Source of the DNA: a virus
Reading direction: 5' to 3' (one strand)
DNA: 64,000 bases
Virus record (IMG/VR): IMGVR_UViG_3300023184_004051
Span: 32,001 to 96,000 of that record
The position numbers and the translations under genes were made by a program. This document shows positions 5 through 63,543 of this stretch, piece by piece. The notes under the pieces were generated by a model. It saw only the letters and a list, made by a program, of their open reading frames with translations. It was not told where the DNA came from and searched no databases. Each line of letters begins with the position of its first letter. Position 1 is the stretch's first letter.

Positions 5-2101
5 GTGTCTAGCGATGGCATCGTGATTGACGGTCACCACAACTGGGCGGCGGCAGTTGCCCTGCACGAAGGCTTGGATAGTCACCCCACACTTCCAATC
101 TACCGAGTGGATATGCCCGCTTCCAAACTCATCCCCATTGCCACAGCGTTTGGTGATGCAAAGGGCAATCCCCGTATGGGAATGGTTCGCAAGGCCGAAC
201 TGCGTCGTGTGCTGAAAAAGGCATACGGCAAGAACGCTCACGGGGCTACCAAGTCTATTTTGGAAATGATTTCAGCCCACGCTCGCAAGCGTGTCAAAAA
301 GTCGTTCAACTACACAAACTTCATCCCCAAAAAGGATGAGCAGTCGTGGGGCAACTTAGGTGAAGGCATCTCCGTTCCAAAACAGGAAGCCGCTAGCCCT
401 GCTGATGACTTGGCGCTCCGAGCCTTGAACCTGCGTGAAAAACAGCGTTATGAAAGCGCCGGATTTATGCACGAGCGAGCCGCAGCGGCATATCGAGCGC
501 AGGCTGAAAAAGCAAGTGATGAAGCCGAACGCACATTGCTAGAGAGCAAGGCGAAAGACCAAGACTACGAAGCCAAAGTTGCACATTTCACTGACCAGAT
601 GGGAGAGGGACACTCCCCCTCCGAGGTCAACAAAGGCGACACACCCGGACATCCTTTCCACGGAAACCAATGGACAGGTGGGAAGGGCGGTGGTGAAATG
701 CCTGACAACATTGCCGTTTTCGCCCGCAACCTCAAAGAGTTCTACGACGCTGGTGGAAAAGTAGAGCGCATTGACAACTACGACAAAATGCAGGAAATCC
801 AAAATCAAGTTCAGGACATTATGAGGAAGCCTGAATACAAGCAAATGGATGCTCGTCACCAACAAGGCATCCGCTTCTTAGCCGAAGCCGCCCTTCACGC
901 CAAAGCCGGTGTCAATAACGCAAATAGTGAAAACTATGGCATTACTTCGTCACACTTGTTCGTTGCTCGCGATAAAGACGGCGAGATGGTATCTGCCGTC
1001 AACATCACCACTCACGAAAGTGGCGTTCGTTTGGGCGACCTCAAAGGCCCTGAAGTTCCACACGCCTCTATTGGCTATCTCGGCTCTACGGGAACGATGC
1101 CGGGTGCGGCAACAGCCCTTATGGAGCAGGCGCTCCAACTTGCCGCTGAAAAGGGCTTGACCGTCACCTACGAGACAACCCCTGACAGCCAGCCATACCA
1201 CGACAAGTTGGGTGTCCAAACGCTCAACTACCGAGGTCTACAAGGGTTTTCACCAGAAAGTGCAGCCGAAGTCGCAGCACTTCCAAATCCAAAACCGACC
1301 ATCATCAAGTCCAAAATCACCAAGGGCGATGTGCCGGGTCATCCGTTTCGTGGTAATCAGTGGGAAACAGGGGAAGGCGGTGGTGAAAACCAACGGTTTG
1401 AGCGATTTCCAACGCCTAACGAGGTAGGCGGAGAAGCCCACTTCAACTACATTTGGACCCGTTCACGCAGTTGGTATCCCAACGAAGGTCAAGACCCCAC
1501 AAAAGCCCTTGTTCCAAGAACACCAACTCACGATGATTTGATGAACGCTGCTAGGCAATGGAAGGGCGACCCAAAAGTTCTACGGGCAATGTTGCCAGAG
1601 ATTGTTGGTGGAATAGGCAACCCACCTTGGGTTTCGTCTGTGCAAGAGGATGACCGTGCCGCCTGTGCCGCATTACTCAACGAAGTCACCACGAACGCCC
1701 AAGAAAGCACCGGAACGCTCTGGCGTGGAATGACCCTTGGTAGTTCCAACTCCACGGTAGAGGAAATAATGCAACGCTTCACGGTTGGCGAAAAAACCGA
1801 TGTTCCAATCTCCGGCTTTAGTGAAAACCGCAACCACTCAATGAGGTTTTCTGTCGGCGGGGCGGGGCGTGAACGACAACCGGGGGTTCCGGTAATGTTT
1901 GCCCTTAGTTCGGGCGCACAAGGACTACCGCTAGACGGCAATCTTTATCGTGGGCAGTATGCCTACGAGAAGGAGTGGGTCGTTGGTGGTGAAATGCGAG
2001 TGGACAAGGTTGAGACAATGGGTTCAGGCAACAAGCAATACATCAAGGTTTCTATGACCCAGACACAACCACTAACAGCACCGGAAGGTGGCTTCCGATG
2101 A
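5..2101 (+). CDS. Polyvalent effector-like protein, probably 5'-truncated by the window: ParB/Srx-like N-terminus, GNAT-like domain, C-terminal ARTC-type ADP-ribosyltransferase; two KGDxPGHPFxGNQW tags
   Basis: IDGHHNWAA (ParB/Srx-like). IGYLGSTG..GAATALMEQAL..SQPYHDKLG (GNAT-like). LWRGM / ISGFS / YEKEWVV (R, SxS, ExE ART motifs). Tags at 632-673 and 1322-1363. Confidence 0.7.
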   Translation: MSSDGIVIDGHHNWAAAVALHEGLDSHPTLPIYRVDMPASKLIPIATAFGDAKGNPRMGMVRKAELRRVLKKAYGKNAHGATKSILEMISAHARKRVKKSFNYTNFIPKKDEQSWGNLGEGISVPKQEAASPADDLALRALNLREKQRYESAGFMHERAAAAYRAQAEKASDEAERTLLESKAKDQDYEAKVAHFTDQMGEGHSPSEVNKGDTPGHPFHGNQWTGGKGGGEMPDNIAVFARNLKEFYDAGGKVERIDNYDKMQEIQNQVQDIMRKPEYKQMDARHQQGIRFLAEAALHAKAGVNNANSENYGITSSHLFVARDKDGEMVSAVNITTHESGVRLGDLKGPEVPHASIGYLGSTGTMPGAATALMEQALQLAAEKGLTVTYETTPDSQPYHDKLGVQTLNYRGLQGFSPESAAEVAALPNPKPTIIKSKITKGDVPGHPFRGNQWETGEGGGENQRFERFPTPNEVGGEAHFNYIWTRSRSWYPNEGQDPTKALVPRTPTHDDLMNAARQWKGDPKVLRAMLPEIVGGIGNPPWVSSVQEDDRAACAALLNEVTTNAQESTGTLWRGMTLGSSNSTVEEIMQRFTVGEKTDVPISGFSENRNHSMRFSVGGAGRERQPGVPVMFALSSGAQGLPLDGNLYRGQYAYEKEWVVGGEMRVDKVETMGSGNKQYIKVSMTQTQPLTAPEGGFR

Positions 2102-3465
2102 ACCTCACCAAGTATTACGAATGGGGCTTTGACGAGCCGTTGTTCCCACGAGACGGCTCAATCACCAAGGGCGACCTTCCCGGACACGTATTCCACGGCA
2201 ATCAGTTCGTTGAGGTCGGTGGCGCTGGCACAACCACTTCAGCACGGAAGCCACGAGCCAAATCCCCCACCATCGCTGGTCTACCGAAGGGCTGGAAACT
2301 GAAGTCCAAGGATGGAAGCCGCATTGTCCTGACTTCCAAAAACGGCAACACGGCCATCTTTGCCACCCGCTCACGGGGTTGGAAGCCTGCTGAAAAGTAT
2401 TCGCAGATGGTTTTGGAAACTATCGAGAACCAAACCTCCGGCAAAACTGTCAACTTCGTTGCTGAAGCAAATGTCGGTAGAGATGCACTTGCTTATGTGA
2501 CAAGCGCAGACCCAAATATCGTAAATATGGGGCGCTACTCGGAGGTTGTCCAAACCCTTGACCATCAGCGTGAGCAGTTTGAGAAGCAAGTGACGAATAC
2601 AGCACTTGTTGGCGCAGACTTGTCGCTGGCGCTGATGGAAATGGCAAAGGGAACGCCTGAGCGTGAGGAACTTATCACCAAGATGGCGGAGTTGTATGAC
2701 CAACAGCCACGCACCGAAGCGATGACGAATAACCTCCACAACTCCTGCGCCTCCTTCGTTTCACCACAGAAAATCATTGAGACAATGGTGGCGCACGAAC
2801 TCGGCCACTCGGACTTCTTTTCCGAGGGTCACAAGATTAGTGAAATCTATCCCGCACTCACCGAAGCGGTGCAAGCGGCGGGGGTAGCAAATCGTTGGGC
2901 TATCTCTGGTAGTTATGCTCGTTTCACCGATGCAAGTGCGTGGGAGGCTAGCCAACGGGATGCTTACGCGGAAGTCCTCAGGGGAACACCAAGAAAATAC
3001 ACAGGCTTTGATGTGGGCAACGGGGTCGTTGTTAGCCGTGCTGATTACATTGACTACCGGATGAAGGAGGGGAGCGGAAGTTATCCTGTGAGCGTTTCCA
3101 CCCAAAAAGTATTGCGTGAGATTGGCGTGACGACTTACGGTTCCACCAAACTCCAAGAGGTTGTTGCCGAAGCACGAGCGATGTATTCCGTGCCACAACT
3201 TCCAAAATCAGCCCTGACGATGCGGATTGCCGGAATACTTGGTTGGGATAAGACAAACAAATCTGCTAAACTGTGGTTTATGAAGTCTGAGGATGACCTT
3301 CCACCTGTGAGCGCCAACGAATATTTGGACAAAGACGGCAACTTGATTGCTCGCGTCTTTGACAATGTTGATACCTCGGGCGTTGCCATCACCATCGTCG
3401 GGACAGTCGTGTTCCTGCCTGATGGCACGACGATGAGCCTTGCTGATTACAACGCAACTCACTAA
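2098..3465 (+). CDS. Zincin-like metallopeptidase-domain protein with N-terminal KGDLPGHVFHGNQF tag
   Basis: VAHELGHSDF (HExxH) with distal QEVVAEA. Tag at 2167-2208. ATGA overlap with the upstream ORF. Confidence 0.65.
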   Translation: MNLTKYYEWGFDEPLFPRDGSITKGDLPGHVFHGNQFVEVGGAGTTTSARKPRAKSPTIAGLPKGWKLKSKDGSRIVLTSKNGNTAIFATRSRGWKPAEKYSQMVLETIENQTSGKTVNFVAEANVGRDALAYVTSADPNIVNMGRYSEVVQTLDHQREQFEKQVTNTALVGADLSLALMEMAKGTPEREELITKMAELYDQQPRTEAMTNNLHNSCASFVSPQKIIETMVAHELGHSDFFSEGHKISEIYPALTEAVQAAGVANRWAISGSYARFTDASAWEASQRDAYAEVLRGTPRKYTGFDVGNGVVVSRADYIDYRMKEGSGSYPVSVSTQKVLREIGVTTYGSTKLQEVVAEARAMYSVPQLPKSALTMRIAGILGWDKTNKSAKLWFMKSEDDLPPVSANEYLDKDGNLIARVFDNVDTSGVAITIVGTVVFLPDGTTMSLADYNATH

Positions 3466-3680
3466 CCCCTAAACCGCTACGGGCGTTCACAAAGCCCCCG
3501 CAAGTGCCATTTCACTAGGGAAAACACGCCACCCGTGTTCCAAAGTTGCCATCGAACAATCGTTCGGGTAAAGTATTCCAACCCCCAATGGCTACCCAAA
3601 GGAGGCGTTGTGCTTCACAACACCACTAACAGCAACGGCTACCAAGCCGCCAATGAAGTGAGCAGGGTTGAAATAGAGCC

Positions 3681-4295
3681 TTGTGTGTCCTATCCCTCGT
3701 CAAAGGCAGGCGCGTGGTAGTTGCGGTGCGAGGAATGGCTCTCGCACTCACAGTCTCGCTCTGCATTTTGCTATCGGGAGGAAGTCAGGTTTCACCACCC
3801 GCTTCCGCCACGCCCGAAAACTGCAATCACGGATGTAGTTGGACAATCAACGGTTTGACCTACAAGGTTCCAAACCGAACCTTCAACATCAGGCCGACGA
3901 CGACAACGACAACTCCCCCCATCACCACTACAACGGTTCCACCTGTCACGACAACGACAGTGAAACCGTATGTCGCCCCTCCGGTTGTTCCAAAAGTCAC
4001 TACAACGACTGTCGCCCCAAGCCCCATCAACGGTAATCCCTATGGGGTCACGGCTGCTGATGTGGCTGCGTGGACACGAGTTGCCATTTGTGAGGAAGGT
4101 GGCAACTGGCACATTCGTGGTGGAATGTACTCAGGCGGTCTTGGCATCAGCAACTACAACTGGTCGTATTACTCACGAGGTATGGGCGTTCCTGCCAACG
4201 CTGCTGATGCAACGCCAATCCAACAGATTGCGGTTGCTAAAAAAATCAACGCTGGGTATCAGGTTCCCGACCAATACGGGTGCGCCGCTTGGTGA
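3681..4295 (+). CDS. Secreted Rpf-like (resuscitation-promoting factor) lytic transglycosylase; true start probably 3714-3735
   Basis: Hydrophobic signal-like N-terminus, Thr/Pro linker, WTRVAICEEGGNW..YSGGLGI..W..ADATPIQQIAVA Rpf signature. Confidence 0.8.
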   Translation: MCVLSLVKGRRVVVAVRGMALALTVSLCILLSGGSQVSPPASATPENCNHGCSWTINGLTYKVPNRTFNIRPTTTTTTPPITTTTVPPVTTTTVKPYVAPPVVPKVTTTTVAPSPINGNPYGVTAADVAAWTRVAICEEGGNWHIRGGMYSGGLGISNYNWSYYSRGMGVPANAADATPIQQIAVAKKINAGYQVPDQYGCAAW

Positions 4296-4348
4296 AAAGT
4301 AGACCATAGGCACGGCATCCAAAACCGTGTCTATGGTACTCTTTCGCT

Positions 4349-6493
4349 GTGCTGAAACCGACAACGGATTTGACCGCCGTAAGCCTCTTTGCAGGGGTTG
4401 GCGGGTTTGACTTGGCATTAGAGCGACAAGGCGTAAAAGTCGTCGCTGCGGTGGAAATAGACAAGAACGCCAGAGGGGTTCTTGCACACCGTTTTCCAAA
4501 CAGCACGCTCTTTCCCGATGTCACGGAGGTCACAGGTGAGCAACTTATTTCAGCAGGATTTGTTCCCGAACGAGGCATCCTCACCGGAGGCTTCCCCTGC
4601 CAAGACCTCAGCGTTGCTGGAAAACGGGCCGGTTTGGCTGGCAAGCGTTCTGGCCTCTTTTGGGAAATCGCTCGCCTCATTGACGAACTCACGCCGCAAT
4701 ACTTCATCCTCGAAAATGTCCCCGGTCTTTTGTCATCTAACAGAGGACAAGACTTTGGAGCCGTTCTCGGGGCGCTGGTTGAGCGCGGGTACGGGGTCAC
4801 CTACCGAGTTTTGGATGCTCAATACTTTGGAGTCCCCCAACGCCGCCGTCGAGTGTTCATTGTCGGAAGTTTTGGAGATACCGGGGCCACAACTAGTGAA
4901 ATACTCGCTCTCTCCGAGGGCTTGTCAGGGTATCTTGAACAGAGCATCAAGAAGGAACAAGAAACTTCCACCACTCCTAAACGCCGCACTAGAAGCGGTG
5001 GCGCAGAAGGAAGCGTGACTTCACCACAAACGCTGGCATTTGACACGCAGTTTGGGTCTAACGCAAATGTGTTTGAGGACATTTCACCAACCCTGAAGGC
5101 TTCGCAGGCAGCGCCAAGTTTCACCGAAGTCGGTATGGAGCCGATTTTCTTTGACAGCGCCACTCACGGGGATGGCGCTCGTATTGCTGAAAAGACCATT
5201 CCAACTTTGACTTCCCGTATGGGAACGGGCGGGAATAACACCCCCCTTGTCGCCTACGCCGACCCAATCATCGGCATTGACCAAGAACTCAATGCCCGTG
5301 AGAACATCATTGGCTCGCTCGTCGCCGGTGCAAATAGCGGAACGCAAATACAGGCAGTTGCCTACTCGGTGCGTGAGGATGCACAGAGCAACACTTTCAG
5401 CGCAACCGAACTCTCGGCAGTCAACGCCTTGCAAGCCCACCAACCATCACCACAAAGTCATCACGCTCAAACCTTCATCGTGGAAGTCGAGCCGACGATT
5501 TTTCCAATCCAAGATGGTCGAGAGATGAACCACCAGCAGAACGGCATCGGCGTGGGTAGTGAAAACGACCCCGCCTACACCCTCCTTGCCACAGGCGGTC
5601 AAAGCATCGCAACAGTTTCGCCCGCAATCACCTCAACCGTTCGTCGCCTCACTCCAAAGGAGTGTGAGCGGCTTCAAGGATTTCCCACCGTAGAAAACAT
5701 TGGTATTATTGAGTGGTGTTCAGACCCTCTAAAGAACTATGTGGATGCGGAAAACCAAAATCCCAAGTCGCCATCACCTGCTTTGAGTGTCGCAAACGAA
5801 CAGCCGAGCGAGACTGCGAAATCTGCGGAAAACATTTCACCTACAAACGCTCATCAAACCGCCGAACCTGCTCTGGTCAATGTGGAAGTCAACTGCGAGG
5901 GCGAAATGCTGGAAATACACAGTCAAGGAAAGTTGATATTGTCTGTGAATACTGCGGAGAAGTCAAGCAGGTCAGCCCATCCTCTGCTAAACGCAGATTT
6001 TGTTCCACGGCTTGTGCTTACATTGCAAACTCTGGGTCTAATAACGCTCAATGGCAAGGTGGCATCACCAACGAGCGAGACAAGTTTGACAACAGTAAAG
6101 AGTGGCGTGCCGTTCGTAAGGCTGTCTGGCAACGAGATGACGCTACTTGCCAAAGATGTCGTATCCGATTTGACCATACAACACCCACCTACCACACCCA
6201 CCACATTGTTCCTTTCGGACACGAACCACTTAGAACAGAACTTACAAACCTTGTGTTGCTCTGTAATCCCTGCCATCATTGGGTTCACTCAAACGCCAAC
6301 CAACGGGGTGACTACTTACAGGTTCCACCTACGGGCGAAGCAACCGTGGACAGAGTTCCGCATTGACGAAAAGAAGGGTTTGATTTCACAAGCCGACGCT
6401 CCCCGCTACAAGCAAATGGGAAATGCCGTTGCTGTTCCCTGTGTCGAATGGATTGTGAAGCGGCTCGTTGAGATTGACAGGGCTACGAGGTGA
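4349..6493 (+). CDS. DNA (cytosine-5) methyltransferase with ~220-codon in-frame insertion between motifs IX and X
   Basis: SLFAGVGG, GGFPCQDLS, ENVPG, QRRRRVF, RRLTPKECERLQGFP ... YKQMGNAVAVP. Confidence 0.9.
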   Translation: MLKPTTDLTAVSLFAGVGGFDLALERQGVKVVAAVEIDKNARGVLAHRFPNSTLFPDVTEVTGEQLISAGFVPERGILTGGFPCQDLSVAGKRAGLAGKRSGLFWEIARLIDELTPQYFILENVPGLLSSNRGQDFGAVLGALVERGYGVTYRVLDAQYFGVPQRRRRVFIVGSFGDTGATTSEILALSEGLSGYLEQSIKKEQETSTTPKRRTRSGGAEGSVTSPQTLAFDTQFGSNANVFEDISPTLKASQAAPSFTEVGMEPIFFDSATHGDGARIAEKTIPTLTSRMGTGGNNTPLVAYADPIIGIDQELNARENIIGSLVAGANSGTQIQAVAYSVREDAQSNTFSATELSAVNALQAHQPSPQSHHAQTFIVEVEPTIFPIQDGREMNHQQNGIGVGSENDPAYTLLATGGQSIATVSPAITSTVRRLTPKECERLQGFPTVENIGIIEWCSDPLKNYVDAENQNPKSPSPALSVANEQPSETAKSAENISPTNAHQTAEPALVNVEVNCEGEMLEIHSQGKLILSVNTAEKSSRSAHPLLNADFVPRLVLTLQTLGLITLNGKVASPTSETSLTTVKSGVPFVRLSGNEMTLLAKDVVSDLTIQHPPTTPTTLFLSDTNHLEQNLQTLCCSVIPAIIGFTQTPTNGVTTYRFHLRAKQPWTEFRIDEKKGLISQADAPRYKQMGNAVAVPCVEWIVKRLVEIDRATR
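4482..5018 (+). CDS. Overprinted alternative-frame polypeptide inside the C5 MTase gene (M.EcoHK31I beta-subunit-like)
   Basis: 178-codon open frame fully nested in the MTase gene. C-terminus SLSEVLE..KYSLSPRACQGILNRASRRNKKLPPLL resembles the nested beta polypeptides of this MTase class (recalled, not searched). Confidence 0.65.
   Translation: MHTVFQTARSFPMSRRSQVSNLFQQDLFPNEASSPEASPAKTSALLENGPVWLASVLASFGKSLASLTNSRRNTSSSKMSPVFCHLTEDKTLEPFSGRWLSAGTGSPTEFWMLNTLESPNAAVECSLSEVLEIPGPQLVKYSLSPRACQGILNRASRRNKKLPPLLNAALEAVAQKEA
5713..6366 (+). CDS. HNH homing endonuclease with N-terminal zinc-finger repeats, nested in another frame of the MTase gene
   Basis: Multiple CxxC/CSxxC motifs, NNAQWQGG, WRAVRKAVWQRDDATCQRC..HHIVP..NLVLLCNPCHHWVH. 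Confidence 0.85.
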   Translation: MVFRPSKELCGCGKPKSQVAITCFECRKRTAERDCEICGKHFTYKRSSNRRTCSGQCGSQLRGRNAGNTQSRKVDIVCEYCGEVKQVSPSSAKRRFCSTACAYIANSGSNNAQWQGGITNERDKFDNSKEWRAVRKAVWQRDDATCQRCRIRFDHTTPTYHTHHIVPFGHEPLRTELTNLVLLCNPCHHWVHSNANQRGDYLQVPPTGEATVDRVPH

Positions 6494-7497
6494 AATCAAC
6501 CATCCTTCTAGGCGATGTTCGGAAGCGCCTTTTGGAAATCCCTGACGAGACAATCCAAACCGTAATCACCTCCCCGCCTTACTTTGGCTTACGGGACTAT
6601 GGGGTAGACGGTCAGATAGGTTTGGAAAAATCACCTGAGGACTTCGTGGATGCACTTGTTGAGTTGTTCCGTGAAGTCCGCCGTGTGCTGAAATCTGATG
6701 GAACAGTCTGGCTCAACTTGGGCGACAGTTATTGGGGCGGTAAGGGTCAGTCTGCGAATGGCGGTGCTGAACACCAAGCGGAGAGAGCGAAGCGTGGCGC
6801 AAGCCTCAACCAAGCGCATCAAACGCTCGGTGGTAAAAACCAAACCCGACCAACCGACGGGAAACACCACACCATCAAGCCCAAAGACCTCATCGGCATC
6901 CCGTGGCGTGTCGCTTTTGCCCTACAGGATGACGGCTGGTATTTGCGCTCAGACATCATTTGGTCAAAACCGAACCCAATGCCTGAAGCAATGAAAGACC
7001 GGCCTACAAAGGCTCACGAGTATCTGTTCTTGCTTTCCAAATCACCAAAGTATTACTACGACCACAATGCCATCAGAGAACCGCTTAGTGAGGCCACAAA
7101 AAAGCGTGACCTTGCCCCAAGGGGGCGCTCCCAAAATGGAGGCGGTAGTGAAAAGAGTATGGCTGGATATTCTTACACACCCGAACTTGGAAATATGACG
7201 AGCAACCCACTAGGGCGCAACCGCCGTTCGGTTTGGAGCATCAACACAAAACCATTCAAGGGCGCTCACTTTGCGGTAATGCCCGAAGCCCTTGTAGAGC
7301 CGTGTGTCCTTGCCGGTTCAGCACAGGGGGACACAGTTCTTGACCCCTTTATGGGAAGCGGAACGGTTGCTGTTGTGGCGAACCGTTTTGGAAGGAACTT
7401 CGTGGGAACCGAACTCAACCCTGCATATGCTGAAATCGCCAAGACGAGGATTGTGGATGCAGCCCCCTTACTCAATGAGGTGAACATCGTTGACTAA
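6490..7497 (+). CDS. DNA amino-methyltransferase (N4-C/N6-A, beta class)
   Basis: TSPPY, IIWSKPNPMPE, HFAVMP, VLDPFMGSGT. Confidence 0.9.
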   Translation: MKSTILLGDVRKRLLEIPDETIQTVITSPPYFGLRDYGVDGQIGLEKSPEDFVDALVELFREVRRVLKSDGTVWLNLGDSYWGGKGQSANGGAEHQAERAKRGASLNQAHQTLGGKNQTRPTDGKHHTIKPKDLIGIPWRVAFALQDDGWYLRSDIIWSKPNPMPEAMKDRPTKAHEYLFLLSKSPKYYYDHNAIREPLSEATKKRDLAPRGRSQNGGGSEKSMAGYSYTPELGNMTSNPLGRNRRSVWSINTKPFKGAHFAVMPEALVEPCVLAGSAQGDTVLDPFMGSGTVAVVANRFGRNFVGTELNPAYAEIAKTRIVDAAPLLNEVNIVD

Positions 7498-8593
7498 TGC
7501 CCGTATCCTCATTGGCGATGCCCGCAAGCGTCTTGCTGAAATCCCTGATGGCTCAGTTCGTTGCGCCGTGACTTCACCACCCTATTTTGGATTGCGTGAC
7601 TACGGGACTTCAGATTACGAAGGTGGCGACCCGAACTGCGAACACACGATTTCAGCGACAGATGCGGATGGGAAAGCGGTCTTTGCCGAGCGTGTGACCC
7701 GTGGTGATAGGTCTGCTTGCCTGAAGTGTGGGGCTACCCGTGTTGACAGCCAAATGGGTTTGGAACAAACTCCTGCCGCCTATGTTAGTGAAATGGTTGG
7801 CTTGTTCCGTGAGGTCAAGCGTGTTCTTGCTGATGACGGAACCCTGTGGCTCAACCTCGGAGACTCCTATGCGGGAGGTGGTGGTGGAAACTACAACAAG
7901 ACCGGCATCTCCCAAGCGGGCGGTCAGCACATCGCCAATGTCCGCAATCGCCCAGATTGGTTGCAAAACGCTGGTGTAAAGCCGAAGGACTTGATGGGTG
8001 TTCCTTGGCGAGTGGCTCTCGGATTACAGCAAGACGGTTGGTACCTCCGCAGCGACATCATTTGGCACAAGCCCAATCCGATGCCTGAGAGCGTCACCGA
8101 CAGGCCGACCAAAGCCCACGAGTATGTCTTTCTCCTTTCCAAATCACCTAAATACTTCTACGACTACGAAGCGGTCAAAGAGGATGGCGTGATGCCCGCC
8201 GGATACAAAGCGGCAAAGGGAAGTGCTGAAAGGTATGGGATGGAGGGCGTGAACGCTCGACCACCGGAATACAAGGTCTATGACGGGAAGCGGAACCGCA
8301 GGTCGGTTTGGACAATAAACACCAAGCCGTTCAAGGGAGCGCATTTTGCCGTGATGCCAGAGGCGTTGGTGGAACCGTGCGTCTTGGCAGGCTCGGAAAT
8401 CGGGGATACGGTGCTTGACCCTTTCACCGGAAGTGGGACTGTAGCCGTCGTAGCAATGCGTTTTGGAAGGCACTTCATCGGCACAGAACTGAACCCTGAG
8501 TATGGTGAAATCGCTCGCACACGGATTGAGGGCGACCAACCTCTAATGAACAATGTTGTTTTGGACTTCAGCACAAAGGCGACAAATGACTGA
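7490..8593 (+). CDS. Second DNA amino-methyltransferase (beta class), paralog of the upstream gene
   Basis: TSPPY, IIWHKPNPMPE, VLDPFTGSGT, extra C..CxxC insert after motif IV. Confidence 0.9.
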   Translation: MTNARILIGDARKRLAEIPDGSVRCAVTSPPYFGLRDYGTSDYEGGDPNCEHTISATDADGKAVFAERVTRGDRSACLKCGATRVDSQMGLEQTPAAYVSEMVGLFREVKRVLADDGTLWLNLGDSYAGGGGGNYNKTGISQAGGQHIANVRNRPDWLQNAGVKPKDLMGVPWRVALGLQQDGWYLRSDIIWHKPNPMPESVTDRPTKAHEYVFLLSKSPKYFYDYEAVKEDGVMPAGYKAAKGSAERYGMEGVNARPPEYKVYDGKRNRRSVWTINTKPFKGAHFAVMPEALVEPCVLAGSEIGDTVLDPFTGSGTVAVVAMRFGRHFIGTELNPEYGEIARTRIEGDQPLMNNVVLDFSTKATND

Positions 8594-8771
8594 ACTCAAC
8601 GAAGGCGAGAAGCGGCTGGTTGGTTTGGAAGTAGGCCCACAGTTCAGCGCAAAAATCTATGAGGAAGTTGACTATTCCTTCCACATTGTTTTCACTAGCG
8701 ACGACTTTGCTAGCCTTGCCGAAGCCCAAGGCTTCATTGAGCGTGTGGCGAAAGGATTACGGAATGTCTAA
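8586..8771 (+). CDS. Hypothetical protein
   Basis: ATG overlapping the MTase end; tightly packed with neighbours. Confidence 0.55.
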   Translation: MTELNEGEKRLVGLEVGPQFSAKIYEEVDYSFHIVFTSDDFASLAEAQGFIERVAKGLRNV

Positions 8772-8934
8772 GTGTGCGAACACCAAACACAAATGGATTG
8801 TGATGACGATGGCGGGGAATGGGAACAAGGTCTTTATCACCTGTAGCCTCTGCCCAGAGCGGTTCCCGTTTGGCGTTGAGCAGAATGGCGTTCGTTTCAC
8901 CGGAAAACTCCCACAGAAATACTTGGTTGACTGA
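8764..8934 (+). CDS. Small Cys/His (zinc-ribbon-like) protein
   Basis: MSKCANTKHKW..CSLC; overlaps both neighbours. Confidence 0.55.
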   Translation: MSKCANTKHKWIVMTMAGNGNKVFITCSLCPERFPFGVEQNGVRFTGKLPQKYLVD

Positions 8935-9197
8935 TGCGTAAGAAAGCCCTTCAAGAACAAGTTGCCGAAAATCAGCAGACCATCAAAGCATTGGTTCGTC
9001 AGAATGAAGTCCTCACGATTGCCGGAAGTGAGATGCGGGTCATCATTGGTGAAAAGAATGATGAGTTAGCCGTCTACAAAAAGGCGTTCCAAAACGCGGC
9101 AGGGCGCTTGGCCGCTCACAACGGAGTTTCACCTGACGATGCCTCGGCGTTCGCTGCACAACTCCTTCAAGATGTGGTTCTCAATCCTGAGTTCTAA
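8934..9197 (+). CDS. Hypothetical coiled-coil protein
   Basis: TGATG coupling; heptad-like helical sequence. Confidence 0.6.
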   Translation: MRKKALQEQVAENQQTIKALVRQNEVLTIAGSEMRVIIGEKNDELAVYKKAFQNAAGRLAAHNGVSPDDASAFAAQLLQDVVLNPEF

Positions 9198-9276
9198 GAT
9201 GTTTCAGCAAAGGCCCTGTTTCAGGGGGGATGAAACAAACCTTGCTCTCTTTCACCAACAGGGATAGGATTTGGCT

Positions 9277-9414
9277 ATGAGTGAAACCGTTGAGTTATGT
9301 GGGGCTTGCGGCGCTGCGGTTGAGGAAGTTCTTGGCGAACTTCGTCATCAGCGCACCCGAGCCAAAGCCTGCGACCTTGATGACCCCTCTAGCCTGAGCG
9401 CCCAAAGAAAGTAG
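9277..9414 (+). CDS. Small 45-aa CxxC protein (not in ORF track)
   Basis: MSETVELCGACG...; preceded by TAGGAT-N6-ATG leaderless signal. Confidence 0.5.
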   Translation: MSETVELCGACGAAVEEVLGELRHQRTRAKACDLDDPSSLSAQRK

Positions 9415-9463
9415 TAGATGTCTAGTTTCGTTTGAGTTTTGGAAGTAGCATCAGGCTCATCTA

Positions 9464-9865
9464 GTGAAAAGGATGCCTGTGCTTCTGAACGGAGACAACT
9501 ACACCACACGAACGGGCAACGATGTTGTTCGATACATCTCGTGGCATTGGAAACAGTTGGGCTATCCGCCTTCCATCCGCACCATTGGCAAAGCCGTCGG
9601 TATCAGCAGTACCTCGACAATGCAACAGGTTCTCAAAGATTTGGAACGGCAGGGCAAGATTATCCGTGACCCCTATCACCGGAGCGTGAAAGTGGTGAAC
9701 GGAAAGACCCCCGAAGTCTGCGAGCACGATTGGCGCACCCAAGATACAAGTGCTGGAATAATCCGTGTCATCTGCGTAGCCTGTTTCCGTGAGACTGAGT
9801 TTGAGTTTCAGCCCGACCCTGAGCAACCTTCAACTTGGATGCGTTTCGTGGGTGAAGTGCAGTAA
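9464..9865 (+). CDS. LexA-type winged-helix DNA-binding protein with C-terminal zinc ribbon, no peptidase domain
   Basis: GYPPSIRTIGKAVGISSTSTMQQVLKDLERQGKIIRDP resembles the LexA N-domain; CEHDW..CVAC follows. Confidence 0.75.
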   Translation: MKRMPVLLNGDNYTTRTGNDVVRYISWHWKQLGYPPSIRTIGKAVGISSTSTMQQVLKDLERQGKIIRDPYHRSVKVVNGKTPEVCEHDWRTQDTSAGIIRVICVACFRETEFEFQPDPEQPSTWMRFVGEVQ

Positions 9866-9921
9866 AGCGACAGGGGTGTGATAACATCATTACAGCAACC
9901 CCCCTACAAGGAGTGGCAACT

Positions 9922-10179
9922 ATGTCCGAACCATTAGACGTTCTCGTAGACCGCGTTCACAAGGCACTTGTTCACGATGCCTACGAAACGAACGACATCA
10001 CCAGCCTGCTCAACATCGTGCTTCGTCAGAAAGACACGATTGGCGAGTTGGCCGCCGACAATCAGCGCCTCACCGAGGCTCTTGGCATTGCCGGTCAGCA
10101 CATTGAGAAGTTGGAAGGCAAGTTGGACTCTATTGAGCCAATGACCCACCTCGTTCAGTATGCCGAGGGTAGCAACTGA
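9922..10179 (+). CDS. Hypothetical coiled-coil protein
   Basis: AAGGAG RBS before ATG 9922. Confidence 0.6.
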   Translation: MSEPLDVLVDRVHKALVHDAYETNDITSLLNIVLRQKDTIGELAADNQRLTEALGIAGQHIEKLEGKLDSIEPMTHLVQYAEGSN

Positions 10180-10448
10180 TGTTCAGCAAAAAACTGAAGT
10201 GGTCGGAACTTGACAACTTTGGGCAGCGTGAGGCAAAGGATGACCCTTTCACCTTTATTGCGTGGCAGGGCAAGGAATACGCCGAACTGCGTCTTATCCG
10301 TCGTGACAACGAGGGTGGCATCATCGTCTACCTGCAAGATTTCAGTATCTACTGCCGTGACTTGCAAGCGGCGATGAGGCTTGCTGAAAAGGTCAACAAA
10401 GCCCTCCGCAAATCACGGGAATACAACAAGTTCCAAACCCTGTTCTAA
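10179..10448 (+). CDS. Hypothetical protein
   Basis: TGATG coupling with upstream ORF. Confidence 0.55.
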   Translation: MFSKKLKWSELDNFGQREAKDDPFTFIAWQGKEYAELRLIRRDNEGGIIVYLQDFSIYCRDLQAAMRLAEKVNKALRKSREYNKFQTLF

Positions 10449-10486
10449 TCCTTGCCTTCGAGGTATCACCTTGCTAGGATGGCTTG

Positions 10487-20684: not shown

Positions 20685-20685
20685 A

Positions 20686-53191: not shown

Positions 53192-53344
53192 GTGATAGTG
53201 AAATCCGACGACGACGGACATTGCCTGATTTGCCGCATCAAGACCTACCTGATTTCGGGGGATTGGTTTCACTACAATCAAGAGGCCAAGCGCGCCGCTT
53301 CCAAACTGTGCCACCCCTCGCACCCCAAGCCTGCTGATAACTAA
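53192..53344 (+). CDS. Small 50-aa Cys/His protein (not in ORF track)
   Basis: GAAGGGG RBS, GTG start, HCLICR..WFHY..CHPSHP. Confidence 0.45.
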   Translation: MIVKSDDDGHCLICRIKTYLISGDWFHYNQEAKRAASKLCHPSHPKPADN

Positions 53345-53367
53345 GTTCTGAGAACAAGGAGAAACCT

Positions 53368-53625
53368 ATGGAACCCGTCACCCCGCTTCCAAAGCGCCAA
53401 GAAGTTGACACAAACTTTTCACCAGAGGTCGCCTCGCTGCTGCAACACATCAAGGATGTCTGCAAGCAGATGCGTGACCACGAACGAGCGGTGATTGACT
53501 TGGGCGTTGAGCGTCGCCAGACCGTCACTCGACTCCGTGACCACGGCATCACTTGGCGCAAGATTGCTGAATGGGCCGGCACGACTGACCAAGCCCTTTA
53601 CAAGCACCACAACCGAGACAAGTAG
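53368..53625 (+). CDS. Small HTH DNA-binding protein
   Basis: LRDHGITWRKIAEWAGTTDQALYK; AAGGAG RBS. Confidence 0.7.
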   Translation: MEPVTPLPKRQEVDTNFSPEVASLLQHIKDVCKQMRDHERAVIDLGVERRQTVTRLRDHGITWRKIAEWAGTTDQALYKHHNRDK

Positions 53626-53654
53626 TTGACATCACCACTCGCACCTACTAAACT
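53626..53654 (+). promoter_or_regulatory. SigA-like promoter of the helicase gene
   Basis: TTGACA-N17-TAAACT. Confidence 0.65.
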
Positions 53655-53657
53655 AGG

Positions 53658-56126
53658 GTGCGTATGCCGACACCTGACCCAACTTTAGTTAGAGCCGTGC
53701 AGACGCTTGCGGGCGTTTGCGATGGAGCCGCCACCCAAGATGGTGTTGGCTTCAATGGGCCTGACAGCAAGTTTGGGAAGTCTCTTGGTGAAGCCCCTGT
53801 AGAGGTTTGGACTGATGCCCTCGCCAGAGATGCGTGGGAACTCATCGCCAAGTATCGGGGGCAACTCAAAAGGGTTGGCATTGACTACGACAGCATCCCA
53901 GAGCCTCCTAAGGCGCACGGTGTCAAGGGCGTAAGAGCCGTAGATGTCCGCTCAGGCAAGGTTTTGGTGTTCCTGCCCTATGGGGACTCAGCCTATCCAA
54001 AACAGGCGTTATCAGCAACTTGGAACCGTGACCTGCGGGGTTGGCAGGTAGCCGTATCCAAGTATGGCTCAGTCTTGTCGTGGGCTGAAAGAAACGACAT
54101 CCCCGTGACCGACAGGGCGAAGGCAATCCTGTCATCAGCACCTCAGCCAGACAAGCCAGACTACGGTGGCACAGCCCTTTTGGAGTTTGGTGAAATCGTG
54201 TTGAAGTTTGACTACAACCCCAAACTCGTAGATGCCGTTCGTGCCATTCCCGGTAGGCATTGGAACGGTCACGAGAAGGTTTGGATTATCCCTGCCAAGT
54301 GCGTGAGCCTCGTTCGTCAGTTGGCGGAGGACTATCACCTCTTTCTAACCGAGGATGTCAAGCGCCTACCTGACCACGAAGTGACCACAGCACCGACTGT
54401 CTCCGTCAAAGGGAAGTCGTTTGCCATCTCGTTCACCTACGATGCCGACCTACTTTCCAGCGTTCGCCAAATGCCCGGTTCTACTTGGTCACCTAAGGAC
54501 AGAGTTTGGCTTGTTCCGATTGAGAGCGTTGAGGAAGTTCAGAAGTTTATCGCCCAATCAAAGGCAAAAACTTCACCAGAAGTCGCCAAGTTGGTCGCTG
54601 AGGCAAGTGTCGTTCAAGCGGTTATTGACGCATCAGCAGCGCACGATGCCGAAATCCAAATCAAGGGATTTGGCTCAGAGAAGTTCCAACTATTCCCATT
54701 CCAAAGAGCCGGTGTCGCCTACGCTATGCGTCAAATGGGCTTCACCTGCGACGATGATGGAGTGTGGATACAAACCGAAATAAACTCCGGTGGTGTTCTT
54801 ATTGGCGACGAAATGGGGCTTGGAAAAACCTCGCAAGGTCTTGGTGTTCTGAAGGCTACGAACTCGTTTCCTGCGGTGATTGTCTGCCCTGCCAGCCTCA
54901 AACTCAACTGGAAGCGTGAAGCCGAACAATGGATACCGGGCGTTCAGGTGAAGGTTCTTTCAGGCACTAAAGGCAACTTGCCTGATGCCGACATTTACAT
55001 CATAAACTACGATATTCTCACGCATTGGACAGATAAGTTCGTGAGTATCAAGGGCTTGGTTTTGGATGAAAGCCACTACATCAAGAACGGTTCAGCACAG
55101 CGTTCCAAAGCCTGTATTCGTATGGCGGATAAGGTTTCCGAAGGTGGCGTTAGAGTCTGTTTGTCAGGAACACCAATCGTCAATCAACCTTTAGAGATTA
55201 TGACGCAACTCCGTGTCATCAACCGTTTGGATGAGTTTGGCGGAGCCACTTCATTCCGAGGAAACTACGGGCGGGCATCAGCAAAGAGCCTCGCAGCACT
55301 CAACCGGAAACTCCGTAGCACTTGCTATGTCCGTAGGCGTAAGGCTGATGTTTTGACCGAACTGCCTCCGAAGCGTTGGGCGCACTTGGTCGTAGAAGGC
55401 GACCCTGTGGTGATGAAGGAATACAAGAAAGCCGAAGCCGACATCGTGAAGTATCTGTCGCAGTTGGCGATGCAACTCGCTTTGGAAGCCGGTGCTGATA
55501 ACGAGGAAGCCCGACGAGAGGCTTGGCAAAAGGCGCTACGAGCCAGAGCCGCCGAGAACCTTGTCGCCATCACCACCTTGAAGCAACTCGCCGCCAAAGC
55601 CAAAATGAAGGTCGCTAAGAGTTGGATAGATGACTTCCTCGCCAACGACAAGAAGTTGGTGGTGTTCGGATGGCATCGTGACATCGTGGATATGGTTGCT
55701 GAAAACTTCAGTAATGGCGTGAAAATCCAAGGCGGATTGACCGCCGAGAAGCGTCAGGAAGCCGTTGACCTTTTCCAAAACTCAGACGAGCAGAAGGTGA
55801 TTGCCTGCAACATCAAGGCAGCCGGAGTGGGTCTAACCCTGACCGCAGCCAGCGATGTGCTGTTCGTTGAGCAGGGATGGACACCGAGCGATATGGAGCA
55901 GGGTGCTGACCGTTGCCACCGCATCGGACAGACCGACAGCGTGACCGCTTGGCTGATGCTGACCGCCGAAACGATTGACGAGGATATCGCCACGCTGATT
56001 GACCACAAGAGAAGCATCGTGGACAGGGCGATTGACGGAAGCGATGACGACGATGACGAGGAAACCTCCATCATTGGTGATTTGCTTGTCGGCCTTGCCG
56101 AGCGTGGGATGCAGGAAGCGTCGTAG
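53658..56126 (+). CDS. SNF2-family helicase with HARP-like domains (SMARCAL1-like)
   Basis: GDEMGLGKT, LDESH, LSGTP, QGADRCHRIGQ; repeated FxY...VRxxPG..W....VW modules. Confidence 0.85.
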   Translation: MRMPTPDPTLVRAVQTLAGVCDGAATQDGVGFNGPDSKFGKSLGEAPVEVWTDALARDAWELIAKYRGQLKRVGIDYDSIPEPPKAHGVKGVRAVDVRSGKVLVFLPYGDSAYPKQALSATWNRDLRGWQVAVSKYGSVLSWAERNDIPVTDRAKAILSSAPQPDKPDYGGTALLEFGEIVLKFDYNPKLVDAVRAIPGRHWNGHEKVWIIPAKCVSLVRQLAEDYHLFLTEDVKRLPDHEVTTAPTVSVKGKSFAISFTYDADLLSSVRQMPGSTWSPKDRVWLVPIESVEEVQKFIAQSKAKTSPEVAKLVAEASVVQAVIDASAAHDAEIQIKGFGSEKFQLFPFQRAGVAYAMRQMGFTCDDDGVWIQTEINSGGVLIGDEMGLGKTSQGLGVLKATNSFPAVIVCPASLKLNWKREAEQWIPGVQVKVLSGTKGNLPDADIYIINYDILTHWTDKFVSIKGLVLDESHYIKNGSAQRSKACIRMADKVSEGGVRVCLSGTPIVNQPLEIMTQLRVINRLDEFGGATSFRGNYGRASAKSLAALNRKLRSTCYVRRRKADVLTELPPKRWAHLVVEGDPVVMKEYKKAEADIVKYLSQLAMQLALEAGADNEEARREAWQKALRARAAENLVAITTLKQLAAKAKMKVAKSWIDDFLANDKKLVVFGWHRDIVDMVAENFSNGVKIQGGLTAEKRQEAVDLFQNSDEQKVIACNIKAAGVGLTLTAASDVLFVEQGWTPSDMEQGADRCHRIGQTDSVTAWLMLTAETIDEDIATLIDHKRSIVDRAIDGSDDDDDEETSIIGDLLVGLAERGMQEAS

Positions 56127-56159
56127 TCGCCTTACCCTTGCTGAAAAGTAAGGAGAGGG

Positions 56160-56519
56160 TTAGAGCGTGTTGCCCGCAGCGTTGTCGGTAAAGCCTGTGT
56201 TCACAGCGGCAGTTGCACTCTCGGCGGCGCTAGAGGCATCAGCAGCCATCTCAATCGCATCTTTGTGCGTGTCGTCATCTTTGCCTGATGTGATTTCAGC
56301 AGCCTTGTTGTGTGCCGTAGCCGCTTGGTTGTGCAGACTTGCGGGGAAAATAAACCCCTTCTTGGTCAGGATTTCAGCAACCTTGCGATGATACTTCGCC
56401 TTTTGCTTGTGATGAGCCGCTTGCTCTCTCGACTTCTCGACGGTTTCACCAGCGATTTTCAACACACCCACTGAAGCCCACGAGGGCAACAGAGCGTCGG
56501 TGGCGAAAGGATTTGTCAT
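56160..56519 (-). CDS. His/Ala-rich helical protein with NPF..LL N-terminus (related to the tagged cargo proteins)
   Basis: MTNPFATDALL; HNQAATAHNKAAE; TAGACT-N6-ATG start on the minus strand. Confidence 0.6.
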   Translation of the reverse strand: MTNPFATDALLPSWASVGVLKIAGETVEKSREQAAHHKQKAKYHRKVAEILTKKGFIFPASLHNQAATAHNKAAEITSGKDDDTHKDAIEMAADASSAAESATAAVNTGFTDNAAGNTL

Positions 56520-56569
56520 AACAAAAGTCTATCCTGCGTTAGTGAAATCCCTGAAGTAGAGTGGCATCT

Positions 56570-57772
56570 ATGAATATCAACGTGAGAGCCGAACTTGTTG
56601 CGATTGACAGCATCAAGGCGCACCCGCAAAACCCCCGACTTGGTGATGTCGCCGCTATTGCCGAGAGTTTGGAAGTCAACGGTCAGTATTCACCAGTCGT
56701 GGTTTGGAACGACACGATTATTGCCGGAACCCACACTTGGAAGGCCGCAAAGAGTCTCGGCTGGACAGAAATCGCCGTCACCTACTTTGAGGGCAGCGAG
56801 GATGAGGCGCTTCGTGTGCTGATAACCGACAACCGCACGAGTGACATTGCCGTTTACAACAACGAACTGCTCCTTGACCTGCTGAAATCCCTGCCGGATT
56901 TGGAAGGAACGGGCTTTGACACCGAGTATTTAGACGAACTTGACGGTCTACACAACGACACCTCCGGTGGCATTTCCAAACCTCTCCTTGACGACGAGCC
57001 AACCGACGACCCAACACCACCTGTTCCAATCGTTCTTGGTGACTTTCGGGGCTACTTGGACTACGGACTGCACGACATCTGGCTCTCATCTATCCAAGAT
57101 GCGGTTGGTGAAAAGAAAGCCAAGATTACTAAGGAAATCCGCAATCGCTTGGACATCCCCAACGACCCAAAGCCGCCAAAGACGGAAAAGGTCAAGACTT
57201 CCAAAACTGCCGACCAAAAGATGACGATGGTGGAAACTACTCTCGTTCCCATCAAAGAACTGAAGCGGTATCCAAACAACCCTCGCGAGGGGGACATCGG
57301 GGCGATTAGTGAAAGCCTGCGGGTTCTTGGGCAATACCGACCCGTCGTGGTGAATAAGCGCAACAACCAAATCCTGAAGGGCAACCACACGGCTGCCGCT
57401 GCATCAGCACTTGGCTGGACTGAAGTTGCCGTCGTATGGGTGGATGTGGATGACGAAGCGGCGGCAAAAATCGTGCTTGCCGACAACCGAACAGCAGACA
57501 AGGCGACCTACGACAACGACCTGCTTCTCTCTGCGATTTCACTACTGGACACTTTGGAAGGTTCCGGGTTTGACAGTGAGGATGTAGCCGACATCGCACA
57601 GGGCAAGAACAGCACCCCCGTCATTGCAAAGGTCAAGTTCCAAATCGGGGATTACTCGTTCTCGACTACACAGGGCGCTTACGACGCTTGGGCTGCTGAA
57701 ACCAATATTCCTGATGAGGCGCTTCACCAACTTGGCTTGCCCCTAACCGCACTTCTAAGGGAAGCAGACTGA
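56570..57772 (+). CDS. Protein with two tandem ParB/Srx N-terminal domains
   Basis: HPQNPRLGDV..IIAGTHTWKAA..DNRT and YPNNPREGDI..ILKGNHTAAAA..DNRT. Confidence 0.8.
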   Translation: MNINVRAELVAIDSIKAHPQNPRLGDVAAIAESLEVNGQYSPVVVWNDTIIAGTHTWKAAKSLGWTEIAVTYFEGSEDEALRVLITDNRTSDIAVYNNELLLDLLKSLPDLEGTGFDTEYLDELDGLHNDTSGGISKPLLDDEPTDDPTPPVPIVLGDFRGYLDYGLHDIWLSSIQDAVGEKKAKITKEIRNRLDIPNDPKPPKTEKVKTSKTADQKMTMVETTLVPIKELKRYPNNPREGDIGAISESLRVLGQYRPVVVNKRNNQILKGNHTAAAASALGWTEVAVVWVDVDDEAAAKIVLADNRTADKATYDNDLLLSAISLLDTLEGSGFDSEDVADIAQGKNSTPVIAKVKFQIGDYSFSTTQGAYDAWAAETNIPDEALHQLGLPLTALLREAD

Positions 57773-62814: not shown

Positions 62815-63284
62815 GCCGCCAACAGGACATCGCCAACGCACAGAACCCTGAAGGTGAAAAGCGCCTTGCCCGCATCCTGAACCGCCACATCGGTTGGTCG
62901 GAGCAGGGTTGGTCATCCATCTCTTGTGAAAAGTTGCCACCCTCCTACTACCTTGACTTCTGCATCGTGCGTGACAACCGCTATGTCGAGGCGTGGTTAG
63001 AGGTGAAAGAGCGTGGAGCGTTCTACGGCGACTGGCTTTTCCCGCTTGCAAAGTGGATACGAGGTTTGGAACTTGCTGAAATGAGTGACAAACCGTTCTA
63101 CATTTGCTTCTCTTACCCTGACAAGATTTCAGCAGACGAGCGCATCTGCTATTTGGAAGTCAACAAAGAGATGAAGCCACCTGTGGTTTGGGCGGGGCGC
63201 AAAGACCGAGGCTACGAGAACGATATGTTCCCTCACATTGAGTTGCCCCACAAGTGGTTCACAGATATCTCAGACTTGGGATAG
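62811..63284 (+). CDS. PD-(D/E)XK restriction-endonuclease-fold protein
   Basis: E..YYLDF..AWLEVKER..KW. Confidence 0.65.
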   Translation: MSRQQDIANAQNPEGEKRLARILNRHIGWSEQGWSSISCEKLPPSYYLDFCIVRDNRYVEAWLEVKERGAFYGDWLFPLAKWIRGLELAEMSDKPFYICFSYPDKISADERICYLEVNKEMKPPVVWAGRKDRGYENDMFPHIELPHKWFTDISDLG

Positions 63285-63309
63285 GGTTTCACCACTGAAC
63301 TAAAGGAGA

Positions 63310-63543
63310 GTGAGGCAACCAATGTTCACCATTTTCTGCCAATCACACGGCAAAGAGGAAGTCTGTCCAAGCGAGCCTTACAAGGTCTGCCCTGAGTGCT
63401 TCCACATCTTTCATACCCCTGAGGCGCTGCTAGCCGACGCAAACATCGAACGCTTGCAGATAACCCCGAGTAGTGAAAATGTCACGCTCATCACGGACAC
63501 GGAAGCCGTGTTGTCCTGTCCGCATTGCGTTCACGACTTCTAA
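63310..63543 (+). CDS. Small zinc-finger protein
   Basis: C..H, CPECFH, CPHCVHDF; AAGGAG RBS. Confidence 0.55.
   Translation: MRQPMFTIFCQSHGKEEVCPSEPYKVCPECFHIFHTPEALLADANIERLQITPSSENVTLITDTEAVLSCPHCVHDF

Follow-up and report, generated by a model that had tools for sequence, protein, structure and literature searches.

A near-saturated eight-base word as a probable cis-acting signal in a freshwater tailed phage genome

The question addressed in this study was why one asymmetric eight-base word, TAGTGAAA, occurs about once per kb on both strands of a phage genome. The DNA analyzed, called the window here, was a stretch of 64,000 nucleotides, bases 32001–96000 of the 108,670-bp virus record IMGVR_UViG_3300023184_004051. 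Counts are given for the window or for the whole genome, and positions are those of the window unless genome coordinates are stated. The record was assembled from a lake-water metagenome, and parts of it were also found in other freshwater metagenomes; the sequencing-run metadata state only lake or freshwater metagenome. The genome is that of a tailed phage. An earlier note, made from the letters of the window, had proposed that the word was a dispersed cis-signal. The results suggested that TAGTGAAA is very probably a selected cis-signal and not a by-product.

The window contained 62 copies of TAGTGAAA (42 on the plus strand and 20 on the minus strand), and the whole genome contained 100 (66 and 34). 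The counts and coordinates in the earlier note were reproduced exactly. The copies in the window start at the following positions.

Plus strand, first half: 925, 1819, 2838, 4894, 5557, 7146, 7786, 9462, 11434, 14698, 16315, 19643, 21025, 21951, 22277, 25443, 25812, 26939, 28430, 31620, 32083
Plus strand, second half: 32993, 33959, 35942, 37955, 39418, 39772, 41080, 45456, 45678, 46073, 48018, 48453, 48951, 53196, 56540, 57307, 58160, 60187, 61968, 62347, 63471
Minus strand (TTTCACTA on the plus strand): 3510, 8690, 12394, 14088, 15151, 20615, 22733, 24044, 24732, 27573, 30049, 35059, 36335, 37502, 38975, 45791, 49453, 51006, 53267, 57537

The plus-strand copies spanned 925..63478 and the minus-strand copies 3510..57544. 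Genome-wide, 73 of the 100 copies were inside called genes (45 sense and 28 antisense), 23 were intergenic, and 4 were at gene boundaries. The intergenic class rests on crude gene calls; by span, 8 of the 100 sites were outside every open reading frame (ORF) of at least 300 nt. The main frames were NNT-AGT-GAA-ANN (35 copies), NTA-GTG-AAA (10 copies), and antisense NNT-TTC-ACT-ANN (21 copies). The sites therefore occurred in several frames and between genes, as had been noted, though few were outside ORFs.

The enrichment was compared with a series of null models. Dinucleotide shuffles of the window gave 1.27 ± 1.13 copies with a maximum of 5, against 62 observed and in line with the single chance copy estimated earlier. 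Amino-acid-preserving synonymous codon shuffles gave 1.66 ± 1.26 sense copies in coding sequence (CDS) against 45 observed, so the word was not peptide-driven. TAGTGAAA was the top-ranked 8-mer of the genome; Markov models of orders 0–3 predicted 2.2–3.7 copies against 100.

The same genome showed very strong restriction-site avoidance, a context overlooked by the earlier note, which shapes the family variants that can be used. AGCT, CATG, TTAA, and CCWGG were absent genome-wide, AATT occurred once, and GATC occurred twice. All sixteen 4-bp palindromes were below expectation (0–0.77). Counts near zero were found for dozens of longer words, both palindromes of 6 bp and Type IIS-like words (GAAGA, GGACC, GAATC, CTCAAG, GAGGAG, CGTCTC, and GGTCTC). 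AGCT and GATC were essentially absent from all the relatives whose whole records were counted, with a single AGCT in relative G770, and the other avoided words varied by lineage. The least depleted palindromes were CCGG, GCGC, TGCA, and GGCC, which may be covered by the C5 and N6/N4 methyltransferases of the phage. Since avoidance this extreme restricts the vocabulary of a genome, it was the main rival to a signal and had to be excluded as the cause.

Two nulls included the avoidance. The first was an exact maximum-entropy model, computed by transfer matrix over 6-mers with dinucleotides fitted and avoided words forbidden. It gave 3.0 expected copies with 119 forbidden words and 4.0 with 475, against 100 observed; the set of 475 comprised all significantly depleted words up to 7 nt, added iteratively. 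In the combined null, all synonymous encodings at protein-compatible positions, minus those creating avoided words, were weighted by codon usage. The combined null gave 7.0 expected copies against 73 in CDS, and 3.6 against 28 for antisense copies. Thus, avoidance added a factor of 2–3 and not the bulk of the enrichment. The earlier note had set a codon- or Markov-controlled null beforehand as the test that could refute its claim; the excess persisted under all nulls.

A composite by-product was also considered. In this explanation, TAGTGAAA would be the remainder after hundreds of restriction sites and internal Shine–Dalgarno-like strings are avoided with the proteins kept, and nothing would read it. 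The extreme avoidance, and the 2–3-fold rise that it caused in the protein and codon expectation, are in its favor. However, avoidance is a depletion phenomenon, and every avoidance-aware null left a 10–33-fold excess of TAGTGAAA. A pure restriction-avoidance vocabulary was ruled out as the main cause for TAGTGAAA by these figures; it was partly valid for TTTGGAA-type words.

The form of the enrichment was then characterized. One-mismatch neighbors of TAGTGAAA were close to zero, except TGGTGAAA, TACTGAAA, and TAGTGGAA. The base after TAGTGAA was A in 100 of 100 cases. TAGTGA and AGTGAA were depleted outside the full word, which argues against the by-product explanation, and 35 of 37 AGT-GAA (Ser-Glu) codon pairs were inside the full TAGTGAAA. 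When TAGTGAAA was masked, Markov models of orders 0–5 trained on the remaining genome predicted only 1–2.6 copies, and graded k-mer bias was ruled out as the cause by this masking test. Among the protein-compatible positions, 74 of 175 (42%) carried TAGTGAAA, with an occupancy of 64% in NNT-AGT-GAA-ANN and 38% in antisense NNT-TTC-ACT-ANN, while composition-matched control words filled about 1–2% of their compatible positions. A peptide or codon-usage artefact was ruled out by this saturation together with the codon shuffles. TAGTGAAA is a discrete word near saturation.

The looser words of the family behaved differently. The window contained 69 copies of TGCTGAAA, 58 of TGGTGAAA, 37 of TGGTGGAA, and 112 of TTCCAAA/TTTGGAA, confirming that related words recur constantly. 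Genome-wide, there were 103 copies of TGCTGAAA and 77 of TGGTGAAA, and TRSTGRAA occurred at 381 sites (246 on the plus strand and 135 on the minus strand). The looser words were enriched 5–14-fold over nulls, with graded sub-word bias and Poisson spacing. In CDS, the combined null gave 13.4 against 88 observed for TGCTGAAA, 12.9 against 59 for TGGTGAAA, and 20.5 against 58 for TTTTGGAA. After masking, 12–31 copies were still predicted for these three words, the graded sub-word bias being kept. The residual excess of TTTTGGAA and TTTGGAAA beyond the combined null was only about 3-fold, which fits the by-product explanation. For TTTGGAA-type words, avoidance explained more than for TAGTGAAA, with a residual excess of about 3-fold, and TGSTGRAA words showed graded sub-word bias plus a sense-strand codon-context component. 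In the looser words, the same signal is mixed with a sense-strand codon-context effect and an avoidance-driven vocabulary; a single homogeneous word class was not found.

Polarity was also compared in the minus-strand genes (genome 1208–11214 and 103714–106571). The three copies of TAGTGAAA there were all on the plus strand, antisense to the gene, and the five copies of TGSTGAAA were all sense to the gene. These small numbers suggested that TAGTGAAA and TGSTGAAA follow different polarity rules.

TAGTGAAA was spread over the whole plus-strand gene array; throughout, the plus strand was favored about 2:1, without gradient or switch. Its spacing in this array was more even than random, with a coefficient of variation (CV) of 0.74 against 0.98 (P = 0.002), and each strand taken separately gave a CV of 0.73. 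Close pairs of TAGTGAAA were rarer than expected. The TRSTGAAA and TRSTGRAA sets were Poisson-spaced. The non-random spacing of TAGTGAAA is a further point against the by-product explanation. The spacing and strand analysis proposed in the earlier note thus gave about one copy per kb, evenly placed. No helical phasing or paired inverted sites were found in the spacing analyses, and a four-copy cluster at 45456–46073 was not significant by estimate, about two such clusters being expected by chance.

Toward the two ends of the genome, which carry accessory genes on the minus strand, the density of TAGTGAAA was lower, and the last 6.6 kb of the contig contained none. A right-end module at genome 102001–108670 (window coordinates 70001–76670) encodes an amidoligase and a glutamine amidotransferase, carries minus-strand genes, and has a GC content of 0.56–0.60. 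This module contained no family words and few TGRAA cores. It was conserved with 47–70% identity in the relatives G764, G765, and G769, and is thus long-resident yet without enrichment.

Conservation was investigated in 80 related viral contigs sharing the capsid, with a capsid identity of 61–87%. In the two closest relatives (about 77% DNA identity), 11 of 15 and 6 of 11 TAGTGAAA sites were identical, compared with 24–25% of control 8-mers. Changed sites mostly became TGGTGAAA or TGCTGAAA, so that the residue was altered and a family word kept. Retention at the family level was 72% and 64%, compared with 29–31% for controls (p about 2e-12 and 6e-7). The comparison showed that TGGTGAAA and TGCTGAAA can substitute for TAGTGAAA at homologous positions. 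Conserved sites, and sites swapped for family words despite amino-acid changes, count against a by-product. More distant relatives showed turnover of TAGTGAAA positions.

The earlier note had proposed looking for the word in related phages. It was frequent in five relatives and nearly absent in four, where other 8-mers dominated. The counts of TAGTGAAA were as follows.

G761, 61-kb record: 20 forward and 31 reverse
G762, 62-kb record: 26 forward and 21 reverse
G764, 114-kb record: 25 forward and 23 reverse
G763, 121-kb record: 6 forward and 16 reverse
G767, 95-kb record: 0 forward and 21 reverse, all sense
G765, G766, G769, and G770, 68–93-kb records: 0–1

The dominant words of the word-poor genomes were GGTAAAAA/GCTAAAAA; AACAATTG/AATTGGAA; TGCTGAAA (76 copies); and GGTGGTGA/CAATCACC. 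The dialects were lineage-specific among phages with capsids 75–87% identical. The ratio of sense to antisense TAGTGAAA was near 1:1 in G761, G762, and G764 (23:23, 16:25, and 19:21), so antisense copies were as enriched as sense copies in three relatives, contrary to the by-product explanation. G767 (loci L236–L240) carried an extra word pair, CCTTGGTA/ACCAAGGT, present 63 and 45 times; AATT was absent from it, and CCWGG had one copy. Its whole family was sense-biased and frame-specific, for example 59:8 for TGGTGAAA, as a codon-context effect would be, in keeping with a by-product. The sense bias of G767, set against the strand-symmetric G761, G762, and G764, indicated a codon-context component beside a symmetric TAGTGAAA component.

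Avoidance was also compared with word density across the relatives. The density of the family tracked the depth of avoidance and fell where avoided words persisted (rho −0.34, p = 0.04), which again fits a by-product. However, G764 and G761 tolerate AATT and ACGT yet are rich in TAGTGAAA, whereas G769 avoids CATG, CCWGG, and ACGT and has none. A composite by-product is therefore considered very improbable, and for TAGTGAAA it has already been largely refuted.

These results showed positive and purifying selection that acts directly on the DNA and keeps TAGTGAAA, whichever its orientation, at about one copy per kb in the long-resident part of the genome. The dispersed cis-signal of the earlier note was supported in being discrete, near-saturated, evenly spaced, and conserved; it did not hold as one word class, and none of the readers named was linked to it. 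TAGTGAAA would act as a cis-acting "coverage" signal, whose benefit would be a copy within about 1 kb of any point. Such a benefit would account for the even spacing, for the scarcity of close pairs, and for a density that differs little between coding and non-coding DNA. As the likeliest mechanism, though still a guess that we hold tentatively, TAGTGAAA could be the place where a lineage-specific DNA-binding factor with sequence specificity binds or is loaded. The factor would act locally along the duplex to coat, organize, or shield the genome. A conserved phage gene would encode it, and drift of the specificity between lineages would have produced the dialects.

Conserved DNA-binding proteins exist in the phage family, which favors such a factor, as do the lineage-specific dialects and the lack of enrichment in the bacterial genomes sampled (see below). 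The earlier note had named three of them as possible readers. These and the site at the start of one of them are as follows.

9464–9865, plus strand: winged-helix protein of 133 aa with LexA_DNA_bind (PF01726, E 4e-12)
9462..9469, plus strand: copy of TAGTGAAA whose GTG is the start codon of the LexA-like protein
53368..53625, plus strand: helix-turn-helix (HTH) DNA-binding protein of 85 aa, 72–80% identical in all relatives, word-rich or word-poor
56561..57772, plus strand: protein of 403 aa with two ParB_N domains, found in word-rich G764 and in word-poor G765 and G766

None of the three proteins was tied to the word, since all occurred in both TAGTGAAA-rich and TAGTGAAA-free relatives. Every closer relative carried the LexA-like gene, irrespective of how dense the word was. 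The site overlapping its GTG start was present as described, but it was conserved at that place only in relatives L001 and L010, and LexA-like autoregulation was rejected. The SNF2 gene was also found in both word-rich and word-poor genomes. A ParB/Srx-like domain of the virion was a further predicted DNA-binding protein of the phage. Extended −10-like strings (TGCTACACT, TGCTATACT, and TGCTACGCT) were conserved 10–20 nt before the LexA-like start in relatives (e.g., G761, G765, L054, and L033), suggesting that this gene has its own promoter.

Several results weigh against a duplex-binding factor that reads TAGTGAAA. Gene-content profiles of three rich, one intermediate, and four poor relatives revealed no gene of the phage that was shared by two or more of the word-rich relatives and missing from every one of the four word-poor ones. 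No conserved autoregulatory site was found at the LexA-like gene, and the similarity of this protein did not track the dialect, being 51% to word-free G765 and 37–44% to word-rich G761 and G762. With all of its 21 copies sense, G767 is better matched by a polar process linked to transcription, replication, or a nuclease than by simple binding to the duplex. Part of the sense-strand excess of the family is a codon-context effect, which makes the signal composite. Among known phage DNA-binding proteins, none is documented as requiring about 100 sites within coding sequence.

The word was also compared with known systems. The stoperators of Cluster A mycobacteriophages are asymmetric 13-mers, just over 20 per genome, located in promoters and short intergenic gaps and strictly co-oriented with transcription (PMC9283540). 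They resemble TAGTGAAA in being many dispersed asymmetric sites, in an actinophage-like genome, with a consensus that varies between related phages, and they are read by a phage protein, the immunity repressor; the LexA-like candidate for such a role did not co-vary with TAGTGAAA. In contrast, TAGTGAAA is 8 nt long and has about 100 copies; most of these are in called genes, and they are both sense and antisense. The parS sites are palindromic, about 16 bp long, and present in a few clustered copies near parAB. TAGTGAAA is asymmetric and dispersed, and the ParB-like gene occurs in word-free relatives. The stoperator-like and parS-like readings in the earlier note thus failed on location, orientation, symmetry, and copy number.

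The uptake signal sequences (USS) of Pasteurellaceae and DNA uptake sequences (DUS) of Neisseriaceae occur at about one per kb in both orientations, are evenly spaced, lie in coding sequence through compatible codons, and have lineage dialects. The density, double orientation, and more-than-random evenness of TAGTGAAA are features of USS/DUS. However, USS/DUS are a property of competent bacterial chromosomes and are driven by uptake bias, whereas here the word is carried by a phage and was not enriched in any of the bacterial genomes sampled.

The search for the word in bacteria covered about 760 sampled genomes (201 of the Actinomycetales order, 401 Gammaproteobacteria, 151 Cyanobacteriota, and 10 other), among which TAGTGAAA was not above its reversed control. 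Four of these genomes (G249, G351, G506, and G518) are flagged as unpublished, and none of them is relied on individually. These genomes are samples and the phage host itself is not identified, so the absence of enrichment covers the sampled genomes only. A pair-pattern scan of the genome collection gave scattered single hits, with no dense genome among the matches listed. No capsid relatives were found in bacterial genomes, and nothing relevant on the words was found in the literature. The capsid was 50–52% identical to capsids of Arthrobacter and Microbacterium phages, its best cultured matches; this and an Rpf-type domain give a sequence-based hint of an actinobacterial host.

The main rival mechanism is a Chi-like signal, at which a host helicase-nuclease (RecBCD, AddAB, or an analogue) would be switched from degradation to recombination, rescuing broken phage DNA. 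The breaks would come from restriction, replication, or packaging, and copies on both strands would serve the two ends of a break. Phages rich in the 8-nt Chi of their host carry one copy per about 1.9 kb, about 27-fold above chance, in genes and independently of codon usage (PMC12315714). LLS has 23 sites and MD8 has 32; polarity in these phages ranges from 7:1 to 32:0, the sites are clustered near one end, and the Chi-rich lambdoids are without a recombination module of their own (PMC12315714). Like the Chi-rich phages (P1, the lambdoid LLS class, and Pseudomonas MD8), the present genome has an asymmetric 8-nt word with tens of copies, one per 1–2 kb, in coding sequence, and the documented Chi-rich phages reach a comparable density (PMC12315714). 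Unlike them, it has a recombination module, its copies are not clustered at an end, and its polarity is 66:34 (from 1:1 up to 21:0 among the relatives). The Chi-rich-phage hallmarks of strong polarity, end clustering, and lack of such a module were thus not found, although relative G767 was polar (0:21).

Other evidence bears on the Chi-like signal in both directions. The pressure from DNA cutters is extreme (all 16 four-bp palindromes depleted; AGCT, CATG, and TTAA at zero), so that breaks are plausibly the main threat. Protection of both break ends would fit the even spacing found on each strand taken alone. The dialects differ between lineages that differ in avoided sites, and so probably in hosts. 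The complete polarity of G767 resembles that of LLS and MD8, and partial activity of one-mismatch Chi variants would fit the interchange of TAGTGAAA and TGGTGAAA. However, the word in Chi-rich phages is the known Chi of the host, whereas no sampled genome was enriched in TAGTGAAA, and the canonical Chi octamers were rejected because they were not enriched in the phage genome. The phage has its own exonuclease, Sak4-like protein, and SSB; the orientation bias is only 2:1, and the last 6.6 kb are empty. In Actinobacteria, the most likely group of hosts, Chi is not known. A Chi-like function, raised in the earlier note, is weakened by the lack of host evidence in the sampled genomes and is judged rather unlikely.

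Another local function of the DNA was given a still lower probability and is regarded as improbable: a modification self-mark, a packaging or terminase word allowing a start anywhere, or a priming or helicase-loading site. An asymmetric 8-mer with two two-fold degenerate positions resembles the specificities of Type I, IIG, and III methyltransferases, and the phage encodes at least four DNA methyltransferases and a glycosyltransferase. However, the phrog_67 methyltransferases and the C5 enzyme were absent from TAGTGAAA-rich G764, and we know of no reason for enriching a modification target. For a packaging word, Pfam or PHROGs scans of roughly 57 ORFs revealed no large terminase subunit. Priming would fit the spacing, since about 1 kb resembles the length of Okazaki fragments; however, the strand switch expected of bidirectional replication was not seen along the genome, and the initiator gene has iterons of a different sequence. 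These repeats, rejected as related to TAGTGAAA (45509–45623), belong to an origin-like structure at 45509–45630 inside the DnaD-like initiator gene (45187–46008).

45509–45567: palindromic tandem of CCGGATACGG
45579–45623: three iterons AGAAAGAAC(T/G)GA, 16–17 bp apart, followed by an A-rich run

The remaining gene content is that of a tailed phage. A portal, a protease domain, an endolysin, an SNF2 helicase, a DnaD-like replication initiator, and a PD-(D/E)XK exonuclease were also recognized, with the recombination proteins named above. The located features are as follows.

3681–4295: ORF with an Rpf-type transglycosylase domain (PF06737, E 5e-10)
4349–6493: C5 DNA methyltransferase of 714 aa
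6490–7497: phrog_67-type methyltransferase
7490–8593: phrog_67-type methyltransferase
12668–13675: major head protein
25915–29265: tape measure
Genome 2311–3489: phrog_67-type methyltransferase, adjoined by a glycosyltransferase and a metallophosphoesterase

No significant family match was found for the 455-aa ORF at 2098–3465 or for the 1084-aa ORF at 49849–53103, which had sub-threshold matches only. No tRNAs were found in the window, and blastn against cultured phages gave no match. Both contig ends (genome 1–80 and 108591–108670) carried a direct repeat of about 63 nt, imperfect by a few mismatches. It does not amount to an exact circular overlap and could be either a terminal repeat or some repeated element. 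Relative G763 was classed as having direct terminal repeats.

Dispersed short words under selection, such as Chi, uptake sequences, KOPS, and stoperators, give a rare view of the machinery by which whole genomes are read. Here the word fills almost half of the allowed positions and is evenly spaced, its dialect shifts between sister phages, and short palindromes are nearly purged. With a reader encoded by the phage, this manner of organizing or shielding phage DNA would be new. With a host nuclease as the reader, TAGTGAAA would be a Chi-like word of an uncultured freshwater host and a sequence-only handle for phage–host assignment. It is also conceivable, though doubtful, that this freshwater phage family marks its genomes with near-saturating dialect words of 8–9 nt, for example TAGTGAAA(T), TGSTGRAA, TGSTAAAA, AATTGGAA, and CCTTGGTA, as a self-identity tag. 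The tag would be read by an unrecognized phage or host system, such as a genome-coating or nuclease-blocking protein loaded about once per kb, or kin-specific recombination or packaging. If true, it would be a phage counterpart of the dialects of uptake sequences, evolved alongside the most extreme restriction-site avoidance.

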